64,000 nt of DNA from Clostridiales bacterium (GCA_022508305.1 JAFLVM010000002.1:91729-155728), one strand, 5' to 3'; numbered from the stretch's first letter, positions 36,796 to 50,464 are shown. Notes: generated from the letters alone by a model not told the origin. Numbers and translations: made by a program.

Positions 36796-36997
36796 AAGTC
36801 ACCTCGCTTCTCATTTTATCATTTTTGACCGTGTTAGTCAATTATTACCGCCTTAAACCCCATTTCAAACTATACATTTATTTAACAAACATTGACAATT
36901 ACTTCCAAAAATGATAAAATATACATAACTATTGCTTTTGTGACAATAGAAATGAATTTTATAAGAAATATCGCGATAACGCGTGGTCAGAGGACGT

Positions 36998-38119
36998 ATG
37001 ATTGAAATTAGAGAAGTAAAGACGAAAAAAGAGCGCAAGGAATTTGTAGAGTTTCCGCTCAACCTGTACAAAGGCAACGAATATTTCGTTCCACCGCTTT
37101 ACGGTGACGAAATGAGCATTTTCAAGCCCGACTACGTTTACTACGAGCAGGCAGACGCGGTGTACTTCAACGCTTACCGCGACGGCAAGATTGTAGGCCG
37201 TATTTCTGGTATATTGCAGCGCGCTGCAAACAAAAAGTGGAATCAAAAGCAAATTCGCTTTACCCGCTTTGACGCTATTGACGACCAAGAAGTAGCAAAC
37301 GCGCTGTTTGAAGCTGTGGAAAACTGGGGTCGCAGCAAGGGTATGGAGGAAATCGTAGGTCCCTTGGGATTTTCCGACCTCGAACGCGAGGGCTTGCTCA
37401 TTGCCGGTTTTGACCAAATGAACACCTTTGAGGAGCAGTACAACTACCCGTATTACCAAAAGCTGATTGAAAACTGCGGCTACGGCAAGGACGTGGACTG
37501 GGTAGAGCATCAGCTACGCGTACCCGAGGGCGGTTTTGACCCCAAGTATAGGAAAATCGGCGACATGATGCTGCAAAAGTACAACTTGCACTTTGGCGAG
37601 GCGAAGAACACGCGAGAGTTCATCAACAAGTACGCTGAAGACATCTTCAAGATTTGGGATGAAACCTACGACAAAATTTACGGCACGGTACCCTTCACCG
37701 ACAAGCTCAAGAAGTCGATAGTTGCGCAGTTCAAGCTGCTAATCAACAAAAAATACATTCGCGTGCTGTTTGACGAGCACGGAACGATAGTGGCGTTCGG
37801 ATTTCTGTTCCCGTCTATATCGGATGCGGTGCGCCCGTCAGGTGGCAGACTGACGTTACCCTGCATTATCCGAATACTCAAGGCTATTCGTCATCCCAAG
37901 GTGTTGGATTTGGCAATCATCGGCGTAATCGACTCTTACAAGAACAAAGCCCTAAGCGCATCAATGCTTGCAGAGCTTGGCGAAGCCATGATAAGAGACG
38001 GTATTGACCACTGCGAAACCAACCTCAATTTGGAGCACAACATTCCTATTCAAAACGCATGGAAGTACTTTGACGCTTATCAAAACAAACGTCGCCGTTG
38101 CTTTATTAAAAAACTGTAA
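36998..38119 (+). CDS. Conserved hypothetical protein, GNAT-like N-acetyltransferase fold (putative)
   Basis: The N-terminus MIEIREVKTKKERKEFVEFPLNLYKGNEYFVPPLYGDE resembles a family of about 380 aa commonly annotated as GNAT. This rests on recollection only. The start is uncertain (ATG 36998 or GTG 36983). Confidence 0.45.
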   Translation: MIEIREVKTKKERKEFVEFPLNLYKGNEYFVPPLYGDEMSIFKPDYVYYEQADAVYFNAYRDGKIVGRISGILQRAANKKWNQKQIRFTRFDAIDDQEVANALFEAVENWGRSKGMEEIVGPLGFSDLEREGLLIAGFDQMNTFEEQYNYPYYQKLIENCGYGKDVDWVEHQLRVPEGGFDPKYRKIGDMMLQKYNLHFGEAKNTREFINKYAEDIFKIWDETYDKIYGTVPFTDKLKKSIVAQFKLLINKKYIRVLFDEHGTIVAFGFLFPSISDAVRPSGGRLTLPCIIRILKAIRHPKVLDLAIIGVIDSYKNKALSASMLAELGEAMIRDGIDHCETNLNLEHNIPIQNAWKYFDAYQNKRRRCFIKKL

Positions 38120-38281: not shown

Positions 38282-41200
38282 ATGAAAAAATACTTAATTT
38301 TAGTGTTAGTAATAGTTTTGGCGCTGTGTTTGACGGTTGCTTTGACGGCATGTAACGTACACAAGCACGTGTTGAGCGAGTTGATAGACGAAGTTCCGGC
38401 TACTTGCGCTGACGGTGTCAAGGCTCACTACGAATGTACGGGCTGCGACGCGTTATTTGACGAGAACAAACAAGAGGTCAAGGCGTCGGATTTGGTTATT
38501 CCCGCGACAAAGGAACATACTCCCGAACTTGTTGTAGGCGTACCTCAAACGGACTGCTCGGTGGCAGGACTTACAGACGGCTACAAATGCGCAGTTTGCG
38601 GCGAGATACTCGTTCCGCAAGAGGTTATTCCCGCCAAAGCCCACACTTTCGGCGAATGGGACGAAGTGTACCGGGCTACGGAGACAACTTCCGGCTTGAA
38701 GACCCGCAAGTGCGAAGTATGCGGACAAATTGAATCGCAGTATACCGATTTGTTGCCTCACGAGTGGAGCAACTGGACGGATAACGGCGACGGTACGCAC
38801 ACCCGTACCTGTTCGCAAAAAGATTGTCAAATAGGCATTCAAACGGAAACCTGCCTGTACAACGACGGCGAGGCTACTGCCGCAACCTGTCTTGACGGCG
38901 GATTTACCACCTACAAATGTACGGTTTGCGGACATATCGAAAAGAGAGAAGAAGTGTCGGCGCTCGGTCACGACTACGGCGACGGTAAGTATACGGCAGA
39001 TTACGTCGGATTGGAAAATTTGGACAACCACACCCACACTCATTCCCGTATTTGCAGACGTTGCAGCGAGGTTGACACCCAAAACTGTGTATTTTCAACT
39101 ACGGAAGTCGTACAGCCAACCTGTGAACTGGGCGGTTACACCAAGCATATTTGCGCTGAATGCGGCAGCATTCACGAAGATACTTTGACTAACGCTACAG
39201 GACACGATTGGGGGCAATGGACGTACGACGAAACAACGGCTGACACCCACAGGCGTACCTGTTCTAACGATTTAACGCACGTGGAAACTCAAAGTTGCGT
39301 GTACGTTGACGAAGTAACCCAACCTACGTGCAATAGCGTAGGATTCACAACTCACACCTGCTCCGTGTGTAAACACTCCACAAAGGACAGCGAAACGGCA
39401 ATGCTTCAACACGTTTTCGGCGATTGGGAGTACGCAGGACAGGATGACGGAGTTCACAAACATCAACATACATGTTTGCTGTGTCAAACGGTATTCAAAG
39501 AAAACTGTAAGATAGTGAACATTGAGCAGGCGGCAAACTGCTTGCAAAGCGGCAGCGATTCGGAAGTATGTGAAGTTTGTCTTACCTGCGTTTCCGAAAC
39601 GGAAATCAAGCCTCTCGGACACAATTGGGGAAGCTGGACGGACAACGGAGACGGCACTCACTCCCGCGTTTGCAAAAACGACAACTCTCACGTTGAAGCA
39701 AATATCAACCACAACTACACAGTAGAAGTAACGCCTGCCGACTGCCTCAACGCAAGAGTAGACCGTTACACCTGTGTTGACTGCAACAGTACCAAGACGG
39801 AAACGGTTGGCGAGCCTCTCGGACACAGCTGGGGCGCTTGGGTAGTTACCGCTACTGAACACTCGCGTACGTGTCTGTTGGATACCAATCACCGTGAACA
39901 GGCGGCTCACAGCTGGACTACTACAAACCTTTGCAACAGCTGCGAATTCGACGCTCTCACCTACGTGTTGATGGGCGGCAGCTACGTCGTAGCTAACGAC
40001 AACAAATTGCCCGCCACAGTCAAGACGGTAATTATCCGCTCAACCTATACGGCAGCGGGAGACATCACTTCGCGCGTAGTTACGGAAATTGCGCACTCGG
40101 CATTCTACGGCAACAGCAAAATAACGTCGGTAGTGCTGCCCGAAACGTTGACGGTAATCAACTACGAAGCCTTCTACAACTGCACGTCGCTTGCAAGTGT
40201 AACGTTCGGCGACAGGTCGGCGCTTGTAACGATAGACAATAGCGCGTTCTATGGCTGCGCGGCGCTTGAAAGCATTGAAATTCCCAATTCTGTTACGACC
40301 ATTGGTTTAAGCGCTTTCTACAACTGTTCAAGTCTTCGCGACGTAACGATGCCCGACTCTGTTACCTCTATCGGAAGTCGCGCGTTCTACAACACCGCTT
40401 TGTACAATGCTCACGGCAACTGGACGGACGGCGTTCTGTATCTCAACAAACACCTCATCAAGGCAGATGCAAGCGTAAGCGGCGAGTACGTAGTAGCAAA
40501 CGGTACAATTACGATTGGTTGGCAGGCGTTTAGCGATTGTGTAAACCTTACCAAAATCTCCCTTCCCGCAACGCTTTGCTACGTTGAGCGCGACGCATTC
40601 TTGGGTTGCTTGGTATTGACGGAAGTAGAGTATAGCGGAACCATGTACAACTGGTTTGACATTACCTTCGTCAACGACGCGTCCAGCCCGCTGTACTACG
40701 CGGCAAGACTGCACATCGAGGGAGCGATTGGCGAAATAGTAATTCCCGATCACGTCAAGGCAATCCCTGCAGGCACGTTCCGTGGCACTGGCATCACAAG
40801 CGTAGTTATTCCTAACGGCGTAACGAGCATAGGCGAAGAAGCGTTTGAAAACTGCGTAAATCTCACTTCCATTACCATTCCCGATAGCGTTACCTACATC
40901 GGCGCAAACGCATTTACAGGTACCGGGTACTATCTCAACGATAGCAACTGGAACAATGACGACGGAGTAAACGGTGTACTGTACATCAACAATCATCTCA
41001 TTGCTGCCAAAGCAGACGTTGTAACAGGCGAATTGACGGTTCGCGACGGCACGATAACGATAGGCGTTGACGCATTCAAGGATTGCGTAGATATCACCAA
41101 GGTTACAATTGCTGCAAGTGTAGTGCGTATCGGCGCAGGCGCGTTTGGCGGTTGTACAAATCTCAAAAACGTGGTATTTGCCAATAGCAACAGCAGTTGG

Positions 41201-41317
41201 ATGGCAAATAGAGTACAAAGCATAAGTAGAGTAGTAAAAGTCGCCAATTTGACGTCTAATGAAATTGCCGAACAGTTTACCTTCTACAACGGCGAATGGA
41301 AGCTTTTGAACCAATAA
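38282..41317 (+). CDS. Surface lipoprotein: Cys/His-rich zinc-ribbon-like repeat array fused to BspA-type LRR (LRR_5) domain
   Basis: 1011 aa with lipobox LTAC. The N-terminal half has about 6 modules of the type GH.WG.W...DGTH.R.C....E...C.Y......TC...G.T...C..CGH. The C-terminal half has LRR_5 repeats (IPNSVTTIGLSAFYNCSSLRDVTMPDSVTSIGSRAFYN). Confidence 0.85.
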   Translation: MKKYLILVLVIVLALCLTVALTACNVHKHVLSELIDEVPATCADGVKAHYECTGCDALFDENKQEVKASDLVIPATKEHTPELVVGVPQTDCSVAGLTDGYKCAVCGEILVPQEVIPAKAHTFGEWDEVYRATETTSGLKTRKCEVCGQIESQYTDLLPHEWSNWTDNGDGTHTRTCSQKDCQIGIQTETCLYNDGEATAATCLDGGFTTYKCTVCGHIEKREEVSALGHDYGDGKYTADYVGLENLDNHTHTHSRICRRCSEVDTQNCVFSTTEVVQPTCELGGYTKHICAECGSIHEDTLTNATGHDWGQWTYDETTADTHRRTCSNDLTHVETQSCVYVDEVTQPTCNSVGFTTHTCSVCKHSTKDSETAMLQHVFGDWEYAGQDDGVHKHQHTCLLCQTVFKENCKIVNIEQAANCLQSGSDSEVCEVCLTCVSETEIKPLGHNWGSWTDNGDGTHSRVCKNDNSHVEANINHNYTVEVTPADCLNARVDRYTCVDCNSTKTETVGEPLGHSWGAWVVTATEHSRTCLLDTNHREQAAHSWTTTNLCNSCEFDALTYVLMGGSYVVANDNKLPATVKTVIIRSTYTAAGDITSRVVTEIAHSAFYGNSKITSVVLPETLTVINYEAFYNCTSLASVTFGDRSALVTIDNSAFYGCAALESIEIPNSVTTIGLSAFYNCSSLRDVTMPDSVTSIGSRAFYNTALYNAHGNWTDGVLYLNKHLIKADASVSGEYVVANGTITIGWQAFSDCVNLTKISLPATLCYVERDAFLGCLVLTEVEYSGTMYNWFDITFVNDASSPLYYAARLHIEGAIGEIVIPDHVKAIPAGTFRGTGITSVVIPNGVTSIGEEAFENCVNLTSITIPDSVTYIGANAFTGTGYYLNDSNWNNDDGVNGVLYINNHLIAAKADVVTGELTVRDGTITIGVDAFKDCVDITKVTIAASVVRIGAGAFGGCTNLKNVVFANSNSSWMANRVQSISRVVKVANLTSNEIAEQFTFYNGEWKLLNQ

Positions 41318-41651: not shown

Positions 41652-43940
41652 ATGTACACACTGGACGAAACGATTTCCAAAACCATTAAAGAACGGCTTG
41701 ACGACGGACAACGAGTAATCAGTCTTAAGCTACCCTACGGAGAAGTTTATACAAACTATTTAAATATTCCTGATTACAAGCTATATTACTGGGACAATAC
41801 CAAAGACAAACTTTGTTTTAGAAACGACAAAACTAAGATTATTTTCAAGTTTTTGTTTTGGTTGGCAGAAGTTGTCTTGTTTGCTTTGCAGTGTATATTA
41901 CAAGTTCCGGTAGATCCGATGAGCGTACTTGCGCTTACGGGCGAGTTTGCCGAACTAAGCATACAGTTTTTTGACACAACGTCTAATATCAACAATGACG
42001 TTTTTAAATCACTTTCCAAACATATAAAAATCAAAAAACGTCCCTGTAAAGAATACAAAAAAATTAAAAAGGTGTTTTATATCTTCCTAGACAAAAATAC
42101 GTCTAAGGACTTATACAATACCGCTCTTTTGCTTGCAGATTTAGTTAACAATGGGTACGTGGATAATTTGGCGGTAGTATTTTTGTCTACCGTGGACTTA
42201 AAAAATCCCCATCAAGAGCTGCTGAAACTTGACGGACTATCCGAAGAAGAAAACGAATTTGCCTGTAATTTCGGGCGCGATATTCTTGTTTGCATTCGTG
42301 ATAAGCGATATGCGGACGCCGCGATTCAAATAGGCAAATTTATATCAAATCAAGGACTTGAAAACGCAGACATATTTAATTTTGCTATGCAATGCTTATC
42401 CTTTTGTTACGAAAGGTTGAACGAAGCAGATTTTCGACGTCTGTTTGAAGAGAATGAAATAAATATTCATGAGGAACTGAACTTTGGTAAAAACAATAAT
42501 TTTATCGAAAATTTGCAAATCAACAATTCATTTTTGAGATTTTGTTACGGTTGTTTACAACATTACTACCGAAAGAGCAGCGGCGTTCATTCGAATAGTC
42601 TTGACGACAATTTTTTGCAAATAGTAAAAGCTATTCAAAGTAACTTGGTTACAAACAACGACTACTATTCCGCGGCGCAACTGTTTGCAAAGTTCGGCGG
42701 CGTTGAGGAGACCGTAGACGCGTATATTTTGGCATACGTTCACTCTCAATACGTCAATTATTCTGTCAGTGATGAAATATTGCTTGCCATTGAACAATAC
42801 AGTCTTGCATCGTCGAAAGCAAAACTGTTTTTGCAATTGCACGAATTGAACAAGGAGGAAAATCCCGACCCCATATCCGTAAAATCTTTCATAGCGCAGG
42901 TGGAAAATATTAAATTTTCCGACCCCATATTGAAAATATGCTTTTATTACTATCTTGTAAACCCAATTTACAAGAGTGATTGCTGTGATGTAAAGTTTAT
43001 GCGCAATTATATAAGCGCTTACACCTCGTTGAATAGTCAAAACAAAGCGTTTAGGTGTCTGTTTGGCGCGCAGTTTTTGTTACTTTACACAACTATCGAA
43101 GACGTCGAATTGCGCAACAAATTTGGCAAATCAGTAGACACAATTTTTCATTATGTTCGTGAAAATATCTATTTAATAAAAGACAAGGTTGTATATTTCA
43201 AGATTTACCGTTCGTTAAACGGTATATACGTTGACAGATTTCACGAAAATCTCCGTCAGATGTTATCAATAAAAAAGAACGTAGCGGTATATGAAAAAGA
43301 AAATATACTTTACAACATAAATTTGGGCGCAACGTATGCCTTTTGCGGAGACTACAAGTCGGCGCTAACCACGTACAAAAACTTGAAGAAAAAACAGCTA
43401 AACCTGCTGCCACTGTATGTAAAAGCATCGCATCAAAATAACTTCGCGGTATTGCAATATCTGGACAACCCAACCGTAGATAATGCAAAGATTCTGTACA
43501 AACAAACAGATGATTTCTTACGCAAATTCTACGATGAAAAAACCGTTACGGAAGAGACGCGACACTTAGCAATCAACAGGGCATTGTTTGCTATTTTGGG
43601 GCAGTTGCCGAGCAAATTGATTCAACTTGCAATCAACGAGGCGAATGCTCTTTGCGACGACAACTATTTCAAATTTTATATGCAGCAGGCGCAATGGCTT
43701 TACAACGTATTGCGCCACGAACAAATATCCGAGGAAATAATAGAAAGCGTATTTTTCTCAAACAAGATATCTTTCTTCGAGCAAAAAATTGCCGTTATGA
43801 ACTCTGCAACCGATATCAAACAGTTATCTGTCGGTAAGTTAAACGCTATACTTAAAGAAGAATTATCAGACTTTGATGACGACTACGATTATTTCAAAAA
43901 TGCTGCTGTATTTAGTTTAGTGGAGCGTTGGTACGAGTAA
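41652..43940 (+). CDS. Large helical-repeat protein of unknown function (possible degenerate KAP-type P-loop with TM insertion)
   Basis: 762 aa, AT-rich codons. RVISLKLPYGEVYTNYL sits where a Walker A would be (G and K lost). A TM-like segment IIFKFLFWLAEVVLFALQCILQV follows, then KVFYIFLDKNTS (Walker-B-like), then about 550 aa of helical, TPR-like sequence. There is no intact NTPase motif. Confidence 0.7.
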   Translation: MYTLDETISKTIKERLDDGQRVISLKLPYGEVYTNYLNIPDYKLYYWDNTKDKLCFRNDKTKIIFKFLFWLAEVVLFALQCILQVPVDPMSVLALTGEFAELSIQFFDTTSNINNDVFKSLSKHIKIKKRPCKEYKKIKKVFYIFLDKNTSKDLYNTALLLADLVNNGYVDNLAVVFLSTVDLKNPHQELLKLDGLSEEENEFACNFGRDILVCIRDKRYADAAIQIGKFISNQGLENADIFNFAMQCLSFCYERLNEADFRRLFEENEINIHEELNFGKNNNFIENLQINNSFLRFCYGCLQHYYRKSSGVHSNSLDDNFLQIVKAIQSNLVTNNDYYSAAQLFAKFGGVEETVDAYILAYVHSQYVNYSVSDEILLAIEQYSLASSKAKLFLQLHELNKEENPDPISVKSFIAQVENIKFSDPILKICFYYYLVNPIYKSDCCDVKFMRNYISAYTSLNSQNKAFRCLFGAQFLLLYTTIEDVELRNKFGKSVDTIFHYVRENIYLIKDKVVYFKIYRSLNGIYVDRFHENLRQMLSIKKNVAVYEKENILYNINLGATYAFCGDYKSALTTYKNLKKKQLNLLPLYVKASHQNNFAVLQYLDNPTVDNAKILYKQTDDFLRKFYDEKTVTEETRHLAINRALFAILGQLPSKLIQLAINEANALCDDNYFKFYMQQAQWLYNVLRHEQISEEIIESVFFSNKISFFEQKIAVMNSATDIKQLSVGKLNAILKEELSDFDDDYDYFKNAAVFSLVERWYE

Positions 43941-44972
43941 CTTTTGAAACAGCAGAATTTGATAAATTGTTCTGTCATCATTGCTTACCTGTTTTAACGC
44001 AGTGTTGGCAGAACTGCATCTGGAAATAGTTGGGTTTGGCGTTATGTCAAAAAGGTACGTTTTGTCGCCACTTACCATGAAATCAAAACGCGCAATGGAT
44101 TCAAAACCAAGTATAGAATAAGCGCGCAAGGCTTGTTCCATAACCATTTTACTCGTTTTTCCTGTGTATATTTCAAAATCGTATTGGTCGTATGCCACAG
44201 TTGTGTAGTCTAAGTATTCACCCTGTTTTACTATTTTGACAGGCGTGGAGACGTATAGTTGATCGTACCAAGGCAGTACGGTACATTCCACCTCATCGCC
44301 TTGAATAAACTCTTCCAAAAAGACAGACTTGTATTCCTCTAATGATTTAGATATGATTTGCTTTGCATCTTCGTCATCTACGTCTTTCGTTATCTTTTCT
44401 ATTCCTATACTTGCCGATTCGCTGTTTGGTTTGAGCAGTACGGCATCCACTGTACGTCTAAAACCGTTTGCAAGATTCATGTCGTTCTCCGGCATAAAGA
44501 GCCTATGGGGTAAAGAAACTTCGTTTTCTAAAAGTTGATGCATGAGTTTTTTGTCTCCGCCTAAAAATGAAGAACGCGAATTTGAAGAGATGTTGACAAA
44601 TCCGTAGTATTCACAAACAAGCGGAACAAAACAGCGCCGTCCGACACCGAACAAGTTTTGCGCCATAGAGTAGACGTATACGTTATCGTACCTGTTTTTT
44701 AGCTTTGGCGCTTGAGCGATAAATTGGTCTTCCCCGTCAATCAAAATTACTTTCAGTCCGCGTACCGAATGTAACGCATCGCTGATAAGTGCTATTTCAT
44801 CATCATAAACGCATTCCGAACGGTGAACTTCATCTATCTCATTGTTATCTAAGGAATTGTAAACAAAAACAACGCAACTGTTGTCAAAATCTTTACCTTT
44901 TAACTTTATGCTTTGTTTTACTTCATTAAATTCTTGCTTTAATTGCTCGCTTGTAATTACACCTTTTATCAT
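43917..44972 (-). CDS. ATP-grasp enzyme, D-Ala-D-Ala-ligase-like
   Basis: 351 aa. LGGDKKLMHQLL, VLLKPNSESASIGI, EEFIQGDEVECTVLP and ARFDFMVSGDKTYLFDITPNPTIS parallel the Ddl/ATP-grasp motifs. SD GAGG lies 7 nt before the ATG. The 3' end overlaps the convergent 762-aa gene by 24 nt. Confidence 0.75.
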   Translation of the reverse strand: MIKGVITSEQLKQEFNEVKQSIKLKGKDFDNSCVVFVYNSLDNNEIDEVHRSECVYDDEIALISDALHSVRGLKVILIDGEDQFIAQAPKLKNRYDNVYVYSMAQNLFGVGRRCFVPLVCEYYGFVNISSNSRSSFLGGDKKLMHQLLENEVSLPHRLFMPENDMNLANGFRRTVDAVLLKPNSESASIGIEKITKDVDDEDAKQIISKSLEEYKSVFLEEFIQGDEVECTVLPWYDQLYVSTPVKIVKQGEYLDYTTVAYDQYDFEIYTGKTSKMVMEQALRAYSILGFESIARFDFMVSGDKTYLFDITPNPTISRCSSANTALKQVSNDDRTIYQILLFQKLLVPTLH

Positions 44973-44993
44973 TAGAATACCTCAATTTGACGA

Positions 44994-45015
44994 CAATAAT
45001 TGAATGTTATTTTAG
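44994..45015 (-). promoter_or_regulatory. Shared 22-nt 5' element, copy 2 (upstream of the ATP-grasp gene)
   Basis: The minus strand reads CTAAAATAACATTCAATTATTG, 21 nt before ATG 44972. A TTGACA (minus strand, 45055-45060) lies upstream. Confidence 0.7.
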
Positions 45016-45042
45016 TGAGATGAGGAGACAATTAAGCGTGAA

Positions 45043-45080
45043 AATAACTGCCATTGTCAAATAGCAATGGCAGTTTGTGT
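45043..45080 (-). terminator. Terminator after the PadR-hydrolase operon
   Basis: AACTGCCATTG (45051-61), 8-nt loop, CAATGGCAGTT (45070-80). The minus-strand downstream sequence is ATTTTC. Confidence 0.7.
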
Positions 45081-45130
45081 GAAAAAGTAGTGTAGACTAT
45101 TCGCGTGAGCGATCTATAATTCTTAGCGTT

Positions 45131-45919
45131 TTATTTACGGTAATTTAGCCAAAAGTTTTCCATATAGTTATTGAACTCGTTTGGTTTGTCCATATTTACG
45201 CAATGCCCCGCGCCTTGAAAAATAACTTTGTCACAGTTTTCGTATTCTGCCCACTCGTTGACAATTTCTATTTCCATTGGGATGTCGTGTTCACCGCAAC
45301 CAACTAACAAACTGTAAGGTCTTTGCTTTTGTGGGTATTTATTGACAAAATTTTGCAGTTTTGCCAAATACATAAAGGAGCTCTTTTTGAACTGTAAATT
45401 GAGTCGGTAAAATTCTTCCTGCGCCTCAGTGGTGTAAGCGGAAATCTTTTTATTTGCCTTTGCAAACCACTTTATTGAAAAGAGCGCTTTTAGCATCATC
45501 ATCATTTGACCCTTGGAGTTGCTTTGTTGTCTTTTGAGGTCAAAATTGTTTATGTCATAACCGCCGAAACATGCAAGTGAGAGAACTTTGTCTTCGTATT
45601 TATTTGCAAAGTCTTGTATAAACACTGAGCCCAACGAAACGCCCACAAAATGCGCGGCAGCGATATTGTGTTTTTGGAAAATCCCGCTAATCCAGTCGGA
45701 CATTTTCTCAATAGTGTCGCCTTTCTTTGCGTTAATTGAATTTCCGTGACCTAAAATATCAATTGCGAGCAAGTTGTATTTACCGGCAAAGTAATTAAAT
45801 TGTTTTTCAAACATTCTGTGGTCTACGAAAGCCGCGTGAACAAATACTACCCAGTCGTTGTTCGCCGTATCATCAATGTAGTATGCAATAGGGGAGTTTT
45901 CAAGATATAACGTTTGCAT
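45131..45919 (-). CDS. Alpha/beta-fold hydrolase
   Basis: 262 aa. VVFVHAAFVDHRMF, GHGNS, nucleophile elbow GVSLGS, and a C-terminal GAGHCVNMDKP. SD AAGGAG. Confidence 0.8.
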   Translation of the reverse strand: MQTLYLENSPIAYYIDDTANNDWVVFVHAAFVDHRMFEKQFNYFAGKYNLLAIDILGHGNSINAKKGDTIEKMSDWISGIFQKHNIAAAHFVGVSLGSVFIQDFANKYEDKVLSLACFGGYDINNFDLKRQQSNSKGQMMMMLKALFSIKWFAKANKKISAYTTEAQEEFYRLNLQFKKSSFMYLAKLQNFVNKYPQKQRPYSLLVGCGEHDIPMEIEIVNEWAEYENCDKVIFQGAGHCVNMDKPNEFNNYMENFWLNYRK

Positions 45920-45931
45920 TTCATTCGCTCC

Positions 45932-46459
45932 TTACCTTATTTTTTCTAAGAATTTCTTGTACCATTCTAAATTAAACAGCATCAAATCGCGTCCGTAGAT
46001 AGCAGTTTGCAATTGGTAAAACAATAGATCATTGTCTTGTAGTCCAGTTGATAAACGTTCTCCCTCTTTACAAATTACGTCTAATTCAGAATAAAGTTTG
46101 TGCAATTCGTCAATATGCTTTTCTATCATATTGATACGGTTTTCTTTTTCGGAAAAACCCATAAAGTAGATTTTGGCAAGCTCAGGATTCTTGGCGGAAT
46201 TGTTTTCAATTGGACTGTTTACCCATCTGTTGAAATAATCTTTTCCTTCTTCAGTAATGCTGTACAACTTTTTCAATTTGCCGTTTTCAGTTACTTCATT
46301 AACGCAAATATATCTGCTTTTCAAGAGTTTTTTGATAGCTGCTTGTATACTTCCCGTACTACAGCTGTACATCAAATTCAAACCCTCGTTTATACGCTTG
46401 CGTAATTGATATATCGTTCTCGCTTGTAATAACAGTAACCCTAAAATTATATTTTCCAT
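45932..46459 (-). CDS. PadR-family transcriptional regulator
   Basis: 175 aa. ILGLLLLQARTIYQLRKRINEGLNLMYSCSTGSIQAAIKKLLKSRYI...KLYSITEEGKDYF is a PadR winged helix. The stop is 12 nt before the hydrolase start. Confidence 0.85.
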   Translation of the reverse strand: MENIILGLLLLQARTIYQLRKRINEGLNLMYSCSTGSIQAAIKKLLKSRYICVNEVTENGKLKKLYSITEEGKDYFNRWVNSPIENNSAKNPELAKIYFMGFSEKENRINMIEKHIDELHKLYSELDVICKEGERLSTGLQDNDLLFYQLQTAIYGRDLMLFNLEWYKKFLEKIR

Positions 46460-46487: not shown

Positions 46488-46860
46488 CATATTTGTGTAT
46501 CGTTGTCAATAATATTTACGGCAAGAAACATGAAACAATAGCAAATGTTGTTCTTAATCATGCGGTGGATAGGATGGTCGCTTTTTGAGTTATATGTTTT
46601 ATGGAAATATCTTTTGAGATAAAAGAAACTTTAGATTGAATAAGTGTGATTTAATATTGAAAATTATCTAAAATTTTTTTTAATTTTATTTTCACAATTA
46701 TCTTAACAAATATGGTCGATATCAAGTATATATGTAAAATTGAATTATTAATTGTGCATTTAATGAGATTTTTCAATGATTTACTTCAATCATTAGTGAC
46801 TACGGTTCGCAACATTATTGGAGTATATATTCTTTATGTGATTAAACGGGAGGAATATAG

Positions 46861-47673
46861 ATGGATATTGAGCAGGGAAGTATCATTTTTGGTTTGAATT
46901 CAAAAAAATATCCGGAACAAGCGTGTTTTGGAGTGATTATAACTGCTAGTTGTGATATTGCCAATCAAAAAGTGGGAGAAGTGTATTATTTGACGGCAGT
47001 AAATGTTAAGGAATGGCTTTGTACTAAAAGGGGACACGCTTTGGTAATAAAAAATAAGCGAAAAGCACTATATAATAAACTTCAGCAGCAAGTCCGAAGT
47101 CAGCGGTTGAACGAATCACTACTTGTTAAACTGTCACTTGAAGAAGTAAAAACAGTAATTAACGAAACTGTCACTCATGATAAAACAAGAGAAGACATTC
47201 TAAACAATATTCACAATTATTTAGAACTTATAAACGACAGTACGATTGAAAAAAGAAAAGGGGATGCACAGCTGTATTCGCACGATTGTGGTGAACTGCT
47301 TAATCAAATTAGCAAGGGTGATTATCATCGATTTATATATTTGCCAGAAATTGCATATATGGAAAGTTCTAAGAAAGATAACGGAATAATTGTAGATTTT
47401 CAAGAAATAAATTGTCTGCCAATGGAAGAGATACGACTTTTAGTCAATGGTGAAATTGACTATATGATACAAGAAGACAATTTAGATAATTTGCAAAAGT
47501 TGAAAGAAGGATTTTGGTTGAAAAATAAAGATGATTTTGCTTTTTTGTATGGTAAAATTTCGTCTCCTTGGCGAGAACACCTAATGCAACATTTTTCTTT
47601 TTATTTCACTCGTATAGGGTTAGATGGTGCAGAAACAAAAGATTTTCAAAAAATAAGTGAAGGAATAAAATGA
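46861..47673 (+). CDS. Hypothetical protein, partner of the SF1 ATPase (candidate defence-system component A)
   Basis: 270 aa. Strong SD GGGAGGAA. N-terminal GSIIFGLNSKKYPEQACFGVIITASCDIANQKVGEVYYLTAV and a helical C-terminal half. No signal peptide, no TM segment, and no motif I can assign. Confidence 0.75.
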   Translation: MDIEQGSIIFGLNSKKYPEQACFGVIITASCDIANQKVGEVYYLTAVNVKEWLCTKRGHALVIKNKRKALYNKLQQQVRSQRLNESLLVKLSLEEVKTVINETVTHDKTREDILNNIHNYLELINDSTIEKRKGDAQLYSHDCGELLNQISKGDYHRFIYLPEIAYMESSKKDNGIIVDFQEINCLPMEEIRLLVNGEIDYMIQEDNLDNLQKLKEGFWLKNKDDFAFLYGKISSPWREHLMQHFSFYFTRIGLDGAETKDFQKISEGIK

Positions 47674-47681
47674 GGTAAATT

Positions 47682-50000
47682 ATGAGTAACAAGTTTTTAC
47701 TATTTGATAAAGCGGCTATAGACATATTAGTTAGCACACGCACATTTCAAAGTATTGAGTATACGAACGGCATGAGACTTGTGGAACATGCATGTGGTAA
47801 ACATTCTTCAGAAATTTTAGGAGATATAAATATTCGATACTGTTATGATGGAATAATTTTTAGTGGGAAGCGTGGTAATGTGTATTCTGAAGAACAAGAA
47901 AGCAGTAGTTTAAAAAACCATAAGCTTTTCTGCATAGATTTAACAACCTGTGATATATTGTCAGAAAAAGATAGACCCAGTGATTTGTTTACTGTATTGC
48001 AAAAGTCATTTAGAGTATGTCTAAAAATTTGGAATCGTCTGCCATTTGGATTTTCTGAACGTATTCACGAGTCCAAATCTATTGTTTTTCCATTTGCAAT
48101 CACAGATAAGAGAAGGATTGTAATTGAGCGTTCTAATAATATTTCAAGATTGGAGAAAAGGGGAGTTATCAGCCCTCTTCTTGCATATAAATATAATGCC
48201 GAAGAGCCTCGTCCTGGTGTTGAAATTGCAGATACAACTGTACTTAGAAAGGCAGGCGAGGCCTATGTGGATGTAATTTATGAACTTCAAAATGAATTGA
48301 AAGCAAACGAAAATATAGCTTTTTTACCTATAGATAGTAACCTATTCAATCAAGTTACAGCGACTAAGGCTGTGGGGAGAGATGATTTTATGTTTTGGGA
48401 TTTTAAAAGACAGTATGATAACTTGACAGAAACCCAAAAGTATATTGTTGATGTTGAATCTATAGATTCACCTTTGCGTATAGATGGTCCTGCAGGAACT
48501 GGCAAAACCATATCCATGATATTGAGAGCCTATAAAATATTGAAGCAATATAGAGAAAATGGAAAGCCAATTAAAATCGCATTTTTTTCCCATAGCGAAT
48601 CGACTTGTGAGCGTAATCAGTATGTGTTTGGGTTGTATGAAGAAAGCAGTTATTTCTTGAATGAAAAGTCACCGCAAAATATTATTTTTACAACACTATT
48701 AAAGTATTGTTGTGACTACGCAGATATACAGAGGGATAGGTTAATCGAAAAAGATGCGGATGATGCTAAAACATATCAATTGTACCTAGTTGAAGAAGTA
48801 TTGCAGAAAGCTAAAGATATGCATAAAATTCGCACCCTAAGACCATTGATGTCTAAGGGCTTGCAAGAAATATTCGACGATGAAAAAACCCCTACGGCGA
48901 TACAATGTGCCTTGTTACAGCATGAATTTAGTATACAAATAAAAGGGCGAACAGATTGCACATTTGATTCCTATTGTGATATAGAATCAATAACTAACGG
49001 ATTGCCCTGCAAAAATCAAAAGGACAAAGAATGCATATTCTTGTTATTTAATGATTATCAAGATTACTTAAAAGGGATGGGCAATTTCGATGTGGATGAT
49101 GTAGTTATTGAAGCAATGTCACGTCTAAATGCTCCAATATGGAGACGGGAGAGAATAGACAGCGGCTTTGATTATTTGTTCGTGGATGAAATGCATCTGT
49201 TTAATATTAATGAGCAAAGTATTTTTCACTATCTAACAAAAAATTTAGATCCCAAACAGGTGCCAATATGTTTTGCGCTTGATTATAGTCAAGCCATTGG
49301 CGATAGAGGAAATGTGAATCTCGATTATATTGAGAAAAACTTCGGTGATAATGCGGAAAGGAAAAATTATCATACAGTATTCCGTAATTCACCGCAAATA
49401 GCGGATTTCTGCGCTGCAATTGCTTCATCGGGAACATTGATGTTTCAAGAATCATTTTCTAACCCTTATAATGGAATCCAAAACAATTTTGTGGAGGCCG
49501 AAGAGCGTAATTGTGAGATTCCCAAACTCTGTATGTATCCTAATGACGACAAAATGATGGAGGCTCTGGGATATCACATTCAAGAGATAAGCCGTAAGTT
49601 ACAGTGCCAATTGGGTGATATTGCCGTAATCTCGTTTAATAATATGGCTAGTGAGGAAGGTGTCAATGAATTAAGCGCAAAAACAGGAAAAGCGTTTTCC
49701 TTGCTCAAAAACAGAAATAATAACATGAAATCAATTGTCTTGGCATCGCCCTATGAAATAAACGGACTAGAGTTTAAAGCGGTGATACTGTTGGGCGTAG
49801 ATGAAGGAAGAGTCCCGCAAACTGCGGGTGTTAGTGATATTTCACAGCACTTCATTAAATATTCGGCTTATAACTTTTTATATCTTACATCATCAAGGGC
49901 TAAATATCAACTCGTACTACTTGGTAGTAAACTTAACGGATGTTCTTCATGTTTAGAGCATGCAATAAAAACGGAAAGGATAAAATATGAAGAGTTCTAG
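47682..50000 (+). CDS. UvrD-like superfamily-1 helicase/ATPase with an N-terminal domain of about 260 aa of unknown function (candidate defence-system component B)
   Basis: 772 aa. LTETQKYIV...PLRIDGPAGTGKT (Q motif and Walker A), YLFVDEMHLFN (Walker B), TVFRNSPQIADF (motif IV-like), INGLEFKAVILLGVDEGRVP and YLTSSRAKYQLVLL (motifs V/VI-like). SD GAGG (47672-75) overlaps the upstream stop codon. Confidence 0.85.
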   Translation: MSNKFLLFDKAAIDILVSTRTFQSIEYTNGMRLVEHACGKHSSEILGDINIRYCYDGIIFSGKRGNVYSEEQESSSLKNHKLFCIDLTTCDILSEKDRPSDLFTVLQKSFRVCLKIWNRLPFGFSERIHESKSIVFPFAITDKRRIVIERSNNISRLEKRGVISPLLAYKYNAEEPRPGVEIADTTVLRKAGEAYVDVIYELQNELKANENIAFLPIDSNLFNQVTATKAVGRDDFMFWDFKRQYDNLTETQKYIVDVESIDSPLRIDGPAGTGKTISMILRAYKILKQYRENGKPIKIAFFSHSESTCERNQYVFGLYEESSYFLNEKSPQNIIFTTLLKYCCDYADIQRDRLIEKDADDAKTYQLYLVEEVLQKAKDMHKIRTLRPLMSKGLQEIFDDEKTPTAIQCALLQHEFSIQIKGRTDCTFDSYCDIESITNGLPCKNQKDKECIFLLFNDYQDYLKGMGNFDVDDVVIEAMSRLNAPIWRRERIDSGFDYLFVDEMHLFNINEQSIFHYLTKNLDPKQVPICFALDYSQAIGDRGNVNLDYIEKNFGDNAERKNYHTVFRNSPQIADFCAAIASSGTLMFQESFSNPYNGIQNNFVEAEERNCEIPKLCMYPNDDKMMEALGYHIQEISRKLQCQLGDIAVISFNNMASEEGVNELSAKTGKAFSLLKNRNNNMKSIVLASPYEINGLEFKAVILLGVDEGRVPQTAGVSDISQHFIKYSAYNFLYLTSSRAKYQLVLLGSKLNGCSSCLEHAIKTERIKYEEF

Positions 50001-50040: not shown

Positions 50041-50086
50041 AACAAAACAAATACGCACGCCCTTGAAGGGTGTGCGTATTTGTTTG
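50041..50086. terminator. Bidirectional terminator shared by the helicase gene and ssrA
   Basis: CAAATACGCACGCCC (50048-62), TTGAA loop, GGGTGTGCGTATTTG (50068-82). Confidence 0.85.
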
Positions 50087-50089
50087 TAA

Positions 50090-50464
50090 TGGTGGAGCTG
50101 ACGGGACTTGCACCCGTGTACCAACGTAAGACTACTTGACTTTCTCCGCGTTCAGTTTGCTTTTGACGTCACAACGATAAGATAGCAAACCAACTTTTCG
50201 TTGCCTGCAACGAATGAGTTTTCGACAAGTGGCGGTTCGTTGCAACCGTCACCGTCTATTTGCGTGATATTACGCAGGACGTTTCACGACGCAAAAATGT
50301 GAAAGCCTACGCGCTGGCGTAAATTAGGCAGCGTATGCCAATCTCATGGATTGGCTGTTTGTGCTATTGTTAGCGTTTAATTTAGTTTTGCCTTGATGCG
50401 CAGTGGGCGCTGCGACGCGCTTATCAAATCTCCTTTAACGCCGGGCGAATCTAAAAACAGCCCC
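50090..50464 (-). ncRNA. ssrA: tmRNA (transfer-messenger RNA)
   Basis: On the minus strand, 5' GGGGCUGUUUUUAGAUUCGCC... pairs with ...CAGCUCCACCA 3' to form a 7-bp acceptor stem with the G3-U pair and an encoded CCA. The T-arm is ACGGG-UGCAAGU-CCCGU. The internal tag frame GGC AAA ACU ... GCU GCC UAA (50392..50324) encodes GKTKLNANNSTNSQSMRLAYAA. Length is 375 nt. Confidence 0.85.

Follow-up and report, generated by a model that had tools for sequence, protein, structure and literature searches.

A two-gene locus in a gut Clostridiales genome as a probable member of the recently described type II Gabija anti-phage family

Background

Type II Gabija, also named Liu-DS1, is a two-gene system made of GajC and GajB that was described by Liu et al. 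(Nucleic Acids Res 2026;54(6):gkag308, PMC13069673; preprint 10.64898/2025.12.08.692795, December 2025), and it is the described system closest to the locus treated here, namely two adjacent open reading frames, ORF1 and ORF2, at positions 46861-50000 of a 64,000-nucleotide stretch of DNA from a Clostridiales bacterium (GCA_022508305.1 JAFLVM010000002.1:91729-155728). This whole stretch is called "the window" below, and coordinates are counted from its first letter. According to Liu et al. (PMC13069673), GajC has a split MazF-like fold with a helical insertion, and GajB is a UvrD helicase plus an additional domain without assigned function. When tested in E. coli MG1655, the system conferred protection against 20 of the 70 phages, and cultures are protected only at a multiplicity of infection (MOI) below 1, which argues for abortive infection. 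Defence is abolished by the double substitution K252A-T253A in GajB and also by glycine substitution of the beta1-beta2 loop of GajC. By analogy with other nuclease-helicase systems, Liu et al. offer the speculation that DNA ends or single-stranded DNA (ssDNA) are sensed by GajB, which then activates GajC as a nuclease. They give a prevalence of more than 1.5% among E. coli genomes; their census was made with DefenseFinder on complete RefSeq genomes.

An earlier note on this DNA had read ORF1 and ORF2 as a self-contained two-gene module directed against phages or other mobile genetic elements (MGEs), "uncharacterised" and of a type that could not be placed. The first half of this reading has gained much support, since the two genes go together in all 21 loci inspected and do so in unrelated contexts, and we think that the pair is almost certainly a real defence module. 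The second half has to be given up: the same architecture has been published, with anti-phage data, as type II Gabija (PMC13069673), so that the pair is not a new type but belongs to a family named in 2025-26. More precisely, we consider it probable that the window pair is a Bacillota member (of the gut Clostridia/Oscillospiraceae type) of this anti-phage family. Good support for a role in defence comes from homology to what is very probably the tested system, from strict pairing, and from the mobile contexts in which the pair is met. Among the papers searched, by accession as well as by subject, none besides that of Liu et al. describes the pair or uses these names.

The window pair and its enterobacterial counterparts

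The layout of the locus, from an ORF scan and direct reading of the raw sequence, is as follows.

46848-46854, plus strand: Shine-Dalgarno sequence GGGAGGA, 6 nt ahead of the ATG of ORF1
46861-47673, plus strand: ORF1, ATG at 46861, TGA at 47671-47673, 270 amino acids (aa)
47672-47675, plus strand: Shine-Dalgarno sequence GAGG, overlapping the stop codon of ORF1, 6 nt ahead of the ATG of ORF2
47682-50000, plus strand: ORF2, ATG at 47682, TAG at 49998-50000, 772 aa

The earlier note was right about this arrangement, that is, two genes on one strand separated by 8 nt, with GAGG overlapping the stop codon of the first, and a strong Shine-Dalgarno sequence ahead of ORF1. The narrow gap, together with a Shine-Dalgarno sequence that overlaps the stop of ORF1, suggests that the two genes are co-expressed and translationally coupled.

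The link between this pair and the published system passes through enterobacterial plasmids. A tblastn search with ORF1 recovered one temperate P2-like phage of Klebsiella and 78 PLSDB plasmids, of which 70 come from E. coli and 74 are conjugative. The IncF plasmid pS253-NDM5, for example, carries between insertion sequence (IS) elements the genes for a hypothetical protein of 262 aa (WP_224053116.1) and a "UvrD-helicase domain-containing protein" of 754 aa (WP_039052447.1). ORF1 aligns with the E. coli small protein from end to end (26% identity, E 8e-16), and so does ORF2 with WP_039052447.1, N-terminal domain included (27% identity, E 3e-82); over the enterobacterial pairs, full-length identity to the window pair is 25-28%. 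Clostridial profiles reach 92-96 bits on the enterobacterial small proteins and 402-404 bits on the helicases, which at a database size of 1.8 billion sequences means E 5e-21 and 1e-115, respectively. The Walker A Lys-Thr of WP_039052447.1 stands at exactly 252-253, and among 5426 complete E. coli genomes 113 (2.1%) have the pair, all 113 copies being on plasmids and none on a chromosome. On the basis of its description, of the K252/T253 numbering and of a prevalence of 2.1% against the published figure of more than 1.5%, the E. coli plasmid pair is very probably Liu-DS1. The earlier note had itself foreseen that ORF1 homologues might turn out to be components of an already named system, and full-length homology to an E. 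coli pair matching Liu-DS1 points to just this case, in which the module is real and its type is not new. As a side observation, some E. coli plasmids carry the pair broken by an insertion of IS1 or IS91.

The gene arrangement and the homologies that characterise type II Gabija are found in the window. A small non-ATPase gene and a UvrD-type helicase gene are adjacent and co-oriented, with no GajA; ORF1 is homologous to GajC; and ORF2 has the layout of a type II GajB, with a UvrD core from residue 258 and a conserved N-terminal domain that can be aligned to the corresponding part of the E. coli helicase. The sizes agree as well, with a small protein of about 260-270 aa, for which the ORF1 model predicts a split beta core, and a helicase of about 755-772 aa that has an additional N-terminal domain, and the residues corresponding to the defence-abolishing mutations, K275 and T276 of ORF2 and, presumably, loop residues 13-21 of ORF1, are intact in the window copy. 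The window pair differs in being chromosomal, next to ssrA, in an uncultured gut Clostridiales, whereas the E. coli pair is on an IncF plasmid; moreover, the clostridial clade has invariant residues of its own, VDLQEI and SPWREH, for example, standing where E. coli has VNLREI and SPFIEL.

PADLOC matched neither ORF1 nor the E. coli and Klebsiella small proteins, which indicates that the system is absent from PADLOC-DB v2.0.0; its "NERD+UvrD" model gave a weak match to the E. coli and Klebsiella helicases. In the Klebsiella phage, ST16-OXA48phi5.4 (L013 6962-10023), the pair (QBP07934.1 and QBP07933.1) has the portal gene on one side and the replication gene on the other. This interval is presumably the variable tin/old region of P2, an anti-phage hotspot. 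Anti-phage hotspots in P2-like phages have been described (PMC9122126), and neither that paper nor the other P2/P4 hotspot surveys examined mention the pair.

Pairing and distribution of the family

A word-indexed search returned 38 ORF1 homologues of 269-299 aa, all without Pfam domains, and an exhaustive search with an ORF1 profile extended this to 663 cluster representatives (E up to 1e-3), of which 462 remain when the limit is set at 1e-10. For ORF2 there are at least 356 full-length homologues with 48-87% identity. Whether the two genes co-occur in other genomes was one of the checks proposed in the earlier note, and the answer is clear. In five diverse ORF1 homologues a UvrD-domain protein of 755-771 aa is encoded directly next (5/5 contigs), and tblastn shows an ORF2 homologue to come next downstream, in the same orientation, in each of the 21 fetched loci that have an ORF1 homologue. 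Identity to the window proteins in these loci is 30-39% for ORF1 versus 51-56% for ORF2, so the small protein diverges faster. A scan of genome contigs gave 9 loci only, a number that says little about taxonomic breadth because the scan used exact peptide patterns.

The neighbours of the pair, by contrast with the pair itself, are not conserved from one locus to another:

One locus: serine recombinases and prophage-like genes or genes resembling an integrative and conjugative element (ICE), adjoining a rumA-type methyltransferase gene
One locus: a Transposase_mut pair
One locus (L007 1-7464 and 11630-12619): AAA-ATPase_like and PDDEXK_9, a 984-aa DUF4379 protein adjoining a SWI2/SNF2-type helicase, and Fic
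One locus (L008 936-3437): an NB-ARC/TPR protein
One locus: serine recombinases and ParB
Further loci: plain housekeeping genes, or a NOV_C-domain protein (L014 9616-10320)

Some clostridial copies adjoin genes of conjugative elements. Across the loci inspected there was no third conserved gene beside the pair, and no conserved small ORF of the antitoxin kind. With its strict pairing, its varying neighbours and the lack of a conserved third gene, the pair behaves like a self-contained mobile accessory cassette.

Two lineages (L001-L006) deserve separate mention. There the pair and accompanying serine-recombinase or transposase genes sit as an insertion beside one conserved block that consists of recJ, relA/spoT, a gene of the metallo-beta-lactamase fold, a radical S-adenosylmethionine gene and a rumA-like methyltransferase gene. 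We take this as a hint that integration recurs at a hotspot next to the rumA-type gene.

We see the interest of these results in the extension of a recently validated defence family from E. coli plasmids to uncultured gut Clostridia. The census of Liu et al. would miss most of the clostridial clade, because the GajB models match it weakly and because its hosts are metagenome-assembled genomes (MAGs). The pair, now labelled "hypothetical protein", gains an annotation, and there are leads that go beyond the E. coli study, namely ORF1 residues invariant across the whole family, a hypervariable insertion, and an N-terminal helicase domain as conserved as the motor; beyond these leads no new question is opened. 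Some interest is left all the same, in that neither accessory domain has a significant structural match, ORF1 having been compared with PDB and BFVD and the N-terminal part of ORF2 with PDB.

The helicase subunit

The following features of ORF2 are referred to below.

47682-48326, plus strand: N-terminal domain, residues 1-215, conserved, with no recognised fold
48483-48509, plus strand: Walker A or motif I, DGPAGTGKT, residues 268-276 (K275, T276)
49179-49196, plus strand: motif II (Walker B), FVDEMH, residues 500-505
49764-49922, plus strand: motifs V-VI, from GLEFKAVILLGVDEGRVP (residues 695-712) to SSRAKYQLVLL (residues 737-747), the segment matching the GajB and UvrD_C models

With FRNSPQI at residues 567-573, all five motifs on which the assignment to the UvrD type of helicase superfamily 1 (SF1) had originally been based could be located. 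The Pfam model UvrD-helicase matches from residue 258 onward (E 7.7e-8), which leaves some 250 N-terminal residues without assignment, in agreement with the earlier description of a part of about 260 residues devoid of recognisable motifs. The best PADLOC matches are to GajB models. They are partial (E 7e-11, about 39 bits, mainly over residues 658-750), one of them, PDLC00121, starting at residue 247; the PADLOC run that had been proposed as a check thus gave a partial answer for ORF2 and nothing for ORF1. The NCBIfam equivalogs for pcrA, rep and HelD reach 19-21 bits against cut-offs of 419-951. As a single sequence ORF2 had no match in PDB, and a profile of its family matched PcrA (3.5e-5), Rep (9e-4) and UvrD1 (4e-3) weakly, and no solved GajB at E up to 1. 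From its sequence, ORF2 is thus classed as a divergent helicase of the SF1A/UvrD type behind an N-terminal extension.

The N-terminal domain was modelled by AlphaFold2 with a predicted local distance difference test score (pLDDT) of 85, and above 90 in the core. Foldseek found no PDB match with E below 0.1 for this model; the only coherent hints were to HigB, YafQ and RelE, which at probability 0.3-0.38 and E above 0.18 are not significant. The structural check proposed in the earlier note returned no significant fold match for this domain or for ORF1, and no nuclease fold for this domain. The domain is almost as well kept as the motor, with a mean pairwise identity of 52% versus 56% for the helicase core, and many of its polar residues are invariant: D9, Q23, S24, D86, Q107, R111, E126, R145, R150 and K170.

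The small subunit

ORF1 is identical to an annotated hypothetical protein, J1F65_05480, of a Clostridiales MAG. It had no usable match in PADLOC, Pfam, NCBIfam or PHROGs, and its profile gave only chance matches, to RRN6, among PDB sequences. The features that matter here are the following.

46897-46923, plus strand: beta1-beta2 loop, residues 13-21, NSKKYPEQA, the presumed counterpart of the loop needed for defence in E. coli GajC
46930-46971, plus strand: strand-helix motif GVIITASCDIANQK, residues 24-37, with C31 and K37 invariant and D32 conserved in at least 90% of the aligned sequences
47026-47313, plus strand: hypervariable helical insertion, residues 56-151, helices in the AlphaFold2 model, of low identity
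47563-47628, plus strand: C-terminal signature SPWREHLMQHFSFYFTRIGLDG, residues 235-256, with P236, R251 and G253 invariant in the alignments

An AlphaFold2 model based on the alignment of 38 sequences has a pLDDT of 91.6 and a predicted template modelling score of 0.87. It begins with strands at residues 7-12, 22-26 and 40-48 and a short helix at 30-34, continues with a helical block at 49-151, and ends with strands at 158-162, 175-187 and 228-232 followed by C-terminal helices. Foldseek gave no match at E up to 0.001 in PDB and BFVD. Toxins of the MazF/Kid/PemK/MoxT kind make up nearly all of the 50 PDB matches listed, with E values of 0.26-2 that are not significant; about 45-50 residues are aligned in these matches, a few alignments extend over 190 columns, and the template modelling score on the target is at most 0.5. 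The top BFVD match is "PemK-like". Profile comparison by hhalign with a hand-typed MazF/Kid/ChpBK alignment was not significant either at full length or with the insertion removed (probability below 1%); the best local match pairs GIIVDFQEI with the MazF strand "vvl.dQirtid" at E 0.17 and is suggestive only. We conclude that the modelled beta core of ORF1, split by a helical insertion, weakly resembles a MazF/PemK barrel.

Conservation was followed in an alignment of 63 sequences that spans Clostridia, Enterobacteria and distant representatives. Only Q5, G6, C31, K37, P236, R251 and G253 are invariant in the 63, and Y17, G24, I27, D32, W52, S235, E239, Q243, F245, F249 and I252 are conserved in at least 90%. 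The earlier note had singled out the N-terminal hydrophobic strand and Cys-Asp in GVIITASCDIANQK as the most distinctive feature of ORF1, and this choice is borne out by the invariant C31 and the at least 90% conserved D32. In the beta1-beta2 loop S14 and Y17 are invariant in alignment A1, Y17 again being conserved in at least 90% of the 63 sequences, and the conserved Tyr17-Pro fits the published GajC loop mutant. On our reading, the conserved tail, SPW-E-LMQ-F...RIG-D, would cap the compact, split beta core.

The insertion behaves quite differently. Compared pair by pair, clostridial ORF1 homologues have a mean identity of 24% in this part, as opposed to 60% for the N-terminal core and 64% for the C-terminal tail. 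This feature, not reported in the E. coli study, could mark a phage-facing or regulatory surface. Two candidate activities for ORF1 were dropped. These were a Cys-His protease and a PD-(D/E)xK nuclease: H240, invariant in Clostridia, is not conserved outside them (Leu in the E. coli homologue), which speaks against a catalytic Cys-His pair, and Foldseek found no fold of either kind.

Comparison with other described systems

Canonical Gabija also has two genes, and its helicase is a UvrD-family SF1 enzyme whose ATPase motif is needed for defence. It differs in the partner, however, since the window pair has no GajA: ORF1 matches no ATPase or TOPRIM model in PADLOC or Pfam, and no gene of the OLD family (ABC ATPase plus TOPRIM) was found in the flanks of the pair. 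ORF2 has in addition about 250 N-terminal residues that set it apart from the canonical helicase. With no GajA, and with a profile search of PDB that finds PcrA, Rep and UvrD1 and no GajB, "Gabija" is to be taken here as the name of a helicase class and not as evidence of a shared mechanism. Hachiman is comparable in that a large helicase comes after a small effector of about 270 aa, and its abortive-type defence is thought to be triggered by DNA sensing; ORF1, however, has no match to DUF1837 (at E up to 1) or to PD-(D/E)xK, and ORF2 is of the SF1A/UvrD type whereas HamB belongs to superfamily 2 (SF2). The statement of the earlier note that the pair is neither canonical Gabija nor Hachiman is therefore sound.

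The Nhi and NERD-UvrD proteins likewise have an N-terminal accessory domain ahead of an SF1 core. The N-terminal domain of ORF2 is unlike theirs in showing no nuclease fold or motif (Pfam, Foldseek), and a separate partner protein is always present. As for MazF, PemK and Kid (the CcdB-MazF superfamily), the order of elements predicted for ORF1 is compatible with theirs, with a beta1-beta2 hairpin, a short helix, beta3 and later strands. Against this likeness, ORF1 carries an insertion of about 100 helical residues and a C-terminal extension of about 70 residues, has no match to Pfam PemK_toxin at E up to 1, lacks a neighbouring gene for a MazE-like antitoxin, and conserves residues (C31, D32, K37, E239, R251) unlike those expected of MazF.

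Mechanism and competing explanations

In the mechanism that we propose, ORF1 and ORF2 would be made together from one coupled transcript and, to judge from their strict pairing, would probably form a complex. ORF2 would engage, in an ATP-dependent manner, the abnormal DNA of phage infection (free ends, ssDNA or replication intermediates), and this engagement would release or activate ORF1 as a toxic effector, presumably a nuclease, so that the infected cell might halt growth or die before phage release, abortive infection being the outcome shown for the E. coli system. The requirement for ATP was shown in E. coli by the Walker A mutant and, by analogy, may apply to ORF2, in which the motif is intact. 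The window copy is presumably active in its host, since both ORFs are intact and the motifs conserved. The conservation pattern is compatible with a helicase that senses and a GajC that executes, and it equally allows the GajC insertion to face the phage.

Several points weigh against our reading of the pair as a clostridial type II Gabija. The E. coli pair was equated with Liu-DS1 through description, residue numbering and prevalence and not through sequence, which is strong but indirect, and the clostridial clade has no more than 25-28% identity to the enterobacterial pairs, of which the E. coli one corresponds to the tested system. ORF2 is not demonstrably nearer to canonical GajB than to PcrA, Rep or UvrD. 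The likeness of ORF1 to MazF is not significant, be it by Foldseek (E 0.26-2 over some 45-50 residues), by hhalign or by Pfam PemK, and the residues that the family conserves (Q5, G6, Y17, C31, D32, K37, E239 and R251) could not be mapped onto the catalytic Arg/Thr of MazF. MazF-type catalysis by ORF1 thus finds no support at the sequence level, and with no significant MazF alignment onto which the conserved residues could be mapped, a nuclease chemistry of ORF1 is a guess. Finally, the island in the window offers no support for mobility of its own, neither an integrase nor an attachment (att) repeat having been found there.

These points leave room for other explanations, of which the one that removes the pair from defence altogether, a housekeeping repair helicase of the UvrD/PcrA kind with an accessory factor, can be considered as effectively refuted. 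It could appeal to the full SF1A motif set of ORF2 and to PcrA, Rep and UvrD1 as the best solved relatives; however, the models for pcrA, rep and HelD score far below their cut-offs (19-21 bits against 419-951), the distribution is patchy and mobile, with unrelated neighbours and low-GC DNA, and in E. coli the pair is confined to about 2% of genomes and to plasmids. We find it improbable, too, that the pair is at heart a module of conflict between MGEs or of addiction, stabilising a plasmid or island or excluding competitors, with ORF1 as a MazF-like toxin restrained by the helicase. The location of all 113 E. coli copies on plasmids, the conjugative nature of 74 of the 78 PLSDB plasmids, and clostridial copies beside serine recombinases, ParB and conjugative-element genes would suit such a module, and the toxin-like fold hints in both accessory domains would suit a toxin-antitoxin-like logic. 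Yet anti-phage activity was measured in E. coli, against 20 of 70 phages (PMC13069673), and copies occur also in a variable P2-like prophage region and, elsewhere, among housekeeping genes that have no plasmid functions close by; besides, such a role and an anti-phage role are not mutually exclusive.

The roles of the two proteins might also be reversed, ORF1 being the sensor or regulator whose insertion contacts phage proteins and the toxicity lying in the N-terminal domain of ORF2 or in ATP-driven damage to DNA or forks. We regard this as unlikely, although it has a good deal to recommend it: the fast evolution of the insertion (24% against 60% and 64%) and of ORF1 as a whole (30-39% against 51-56%) is typical of phage-facing surfaces, sequence comparison detects no relation of ORF1 to MazF, and the N-terminal domain of ORF2 is conserved like the motor (52% against 56%), with many invariant polar residues and weak hints to the toxin RNases RelE, HigB and YafQ. 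Those hints are, however, not significant (E above 0.18, probability at most 0.38); the invariant C31, K37 and R251 of ORF1, with the near-invariant D32 and E239, look like an active site; and replacement of the GajC loop kills defence in E. coli, as expected of an effector, though a sensor or a folding defect would do likewise. Somewhat more attractive to us, if still doubtful, is the idea of an independent helicase-effector system, in which C31, K37 and R251, with D32 and E239, would make a new active site on a much-modified MazF-type barrel, the insertion would recognise phage or be regulated, and the N-terminal domain of ORF2 would be a new, possibly RelE-like fold linking the sensing of DNA with effector release. 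The labels "Gabija" and "MazF-like nuclease" would then both be misleading, and the gut-Clostridia clade would be a large branch with its own specificity.

Surroundings of the pair in the window

Downstream of ORF2 two features lie close together.

50042-50087, no strand assigned: strong hairpin between the stop codon of ORF2 and the 3' end of ssrA, stem of about 21 bp, -33 kcal/mol, z = -5.05 versus shuffles
50090-50464, minus strand: ssrA (transfer-messenger RNA, tmRNA), full-length match to Rfam RF00023, 98.5 bits, at the edge of the AT-rich region

The bidirectional terminator of the earlier note survives as a strong hairpin, whose action in both directions is a matter of interpretation. 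The 5' arm is rich in A and the 3' arm in U, and this makes it plausible that ORF2 and ssrA share the hairpin as a predicted bidirectional terminator; the hairpin was not in the output of a simple terminator scan. ARAGORN reported neither a tmRNA nor a tRNA anywhere in the 64-kb window, despite the Rfam match.

The GC content is 0.31-0.39 over about 41-50 kb and about 0.45-0.52 on both sides. The earlier note had spoken of an AT-rich island next to ssrA, and the low GC and the adjacent ssrA are indeed there. An integrase was looked for in the low-GC stretch around the pair and an att-like repeat of the ssrA 3' end in the window, and neither was found, so that "island" refers to composition and gene content alone. 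The low-GC stretch next to ssrA was counted in favour of the defence-module reading.

The pair shares this AT-rich stretch with a 762-aa orphan ORF (41652-43940, plus strand), which had no match in Pfam, PADLOC, PHROGs or, by sequence, PDB. It has a hydrophobic segment at about residues 63-85, the remainder being helical and repeat-like in appearance, and could be a further accessory or defence gene. Its 3' end overlaps by 24 nt a convergent ATP-grasp gene, which is one of three genes (43917-46459) on the minus strand immediately ahead of the pair, in divergent orientation. These encode an ATP-grasp protein with a D-Ala-D-Ala ligase C-terminal domain, an alpha/beta hydrolase and a PadR-family regulator, and PADLOC matched none of them. 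Farther upstream, a 378-aa candidate ORF with a GTG start (36983-38119, plus strand) has no Pfam or PADLOC match, and it is followed by a gene for a 1011-aa BspA-type leucine-rich-repeat protein (38282-41317, plus strand; LRR_5, E 8e-70), which ends where GC falls from about 0.50 to 0.37, at the left edge of the low-GC region.

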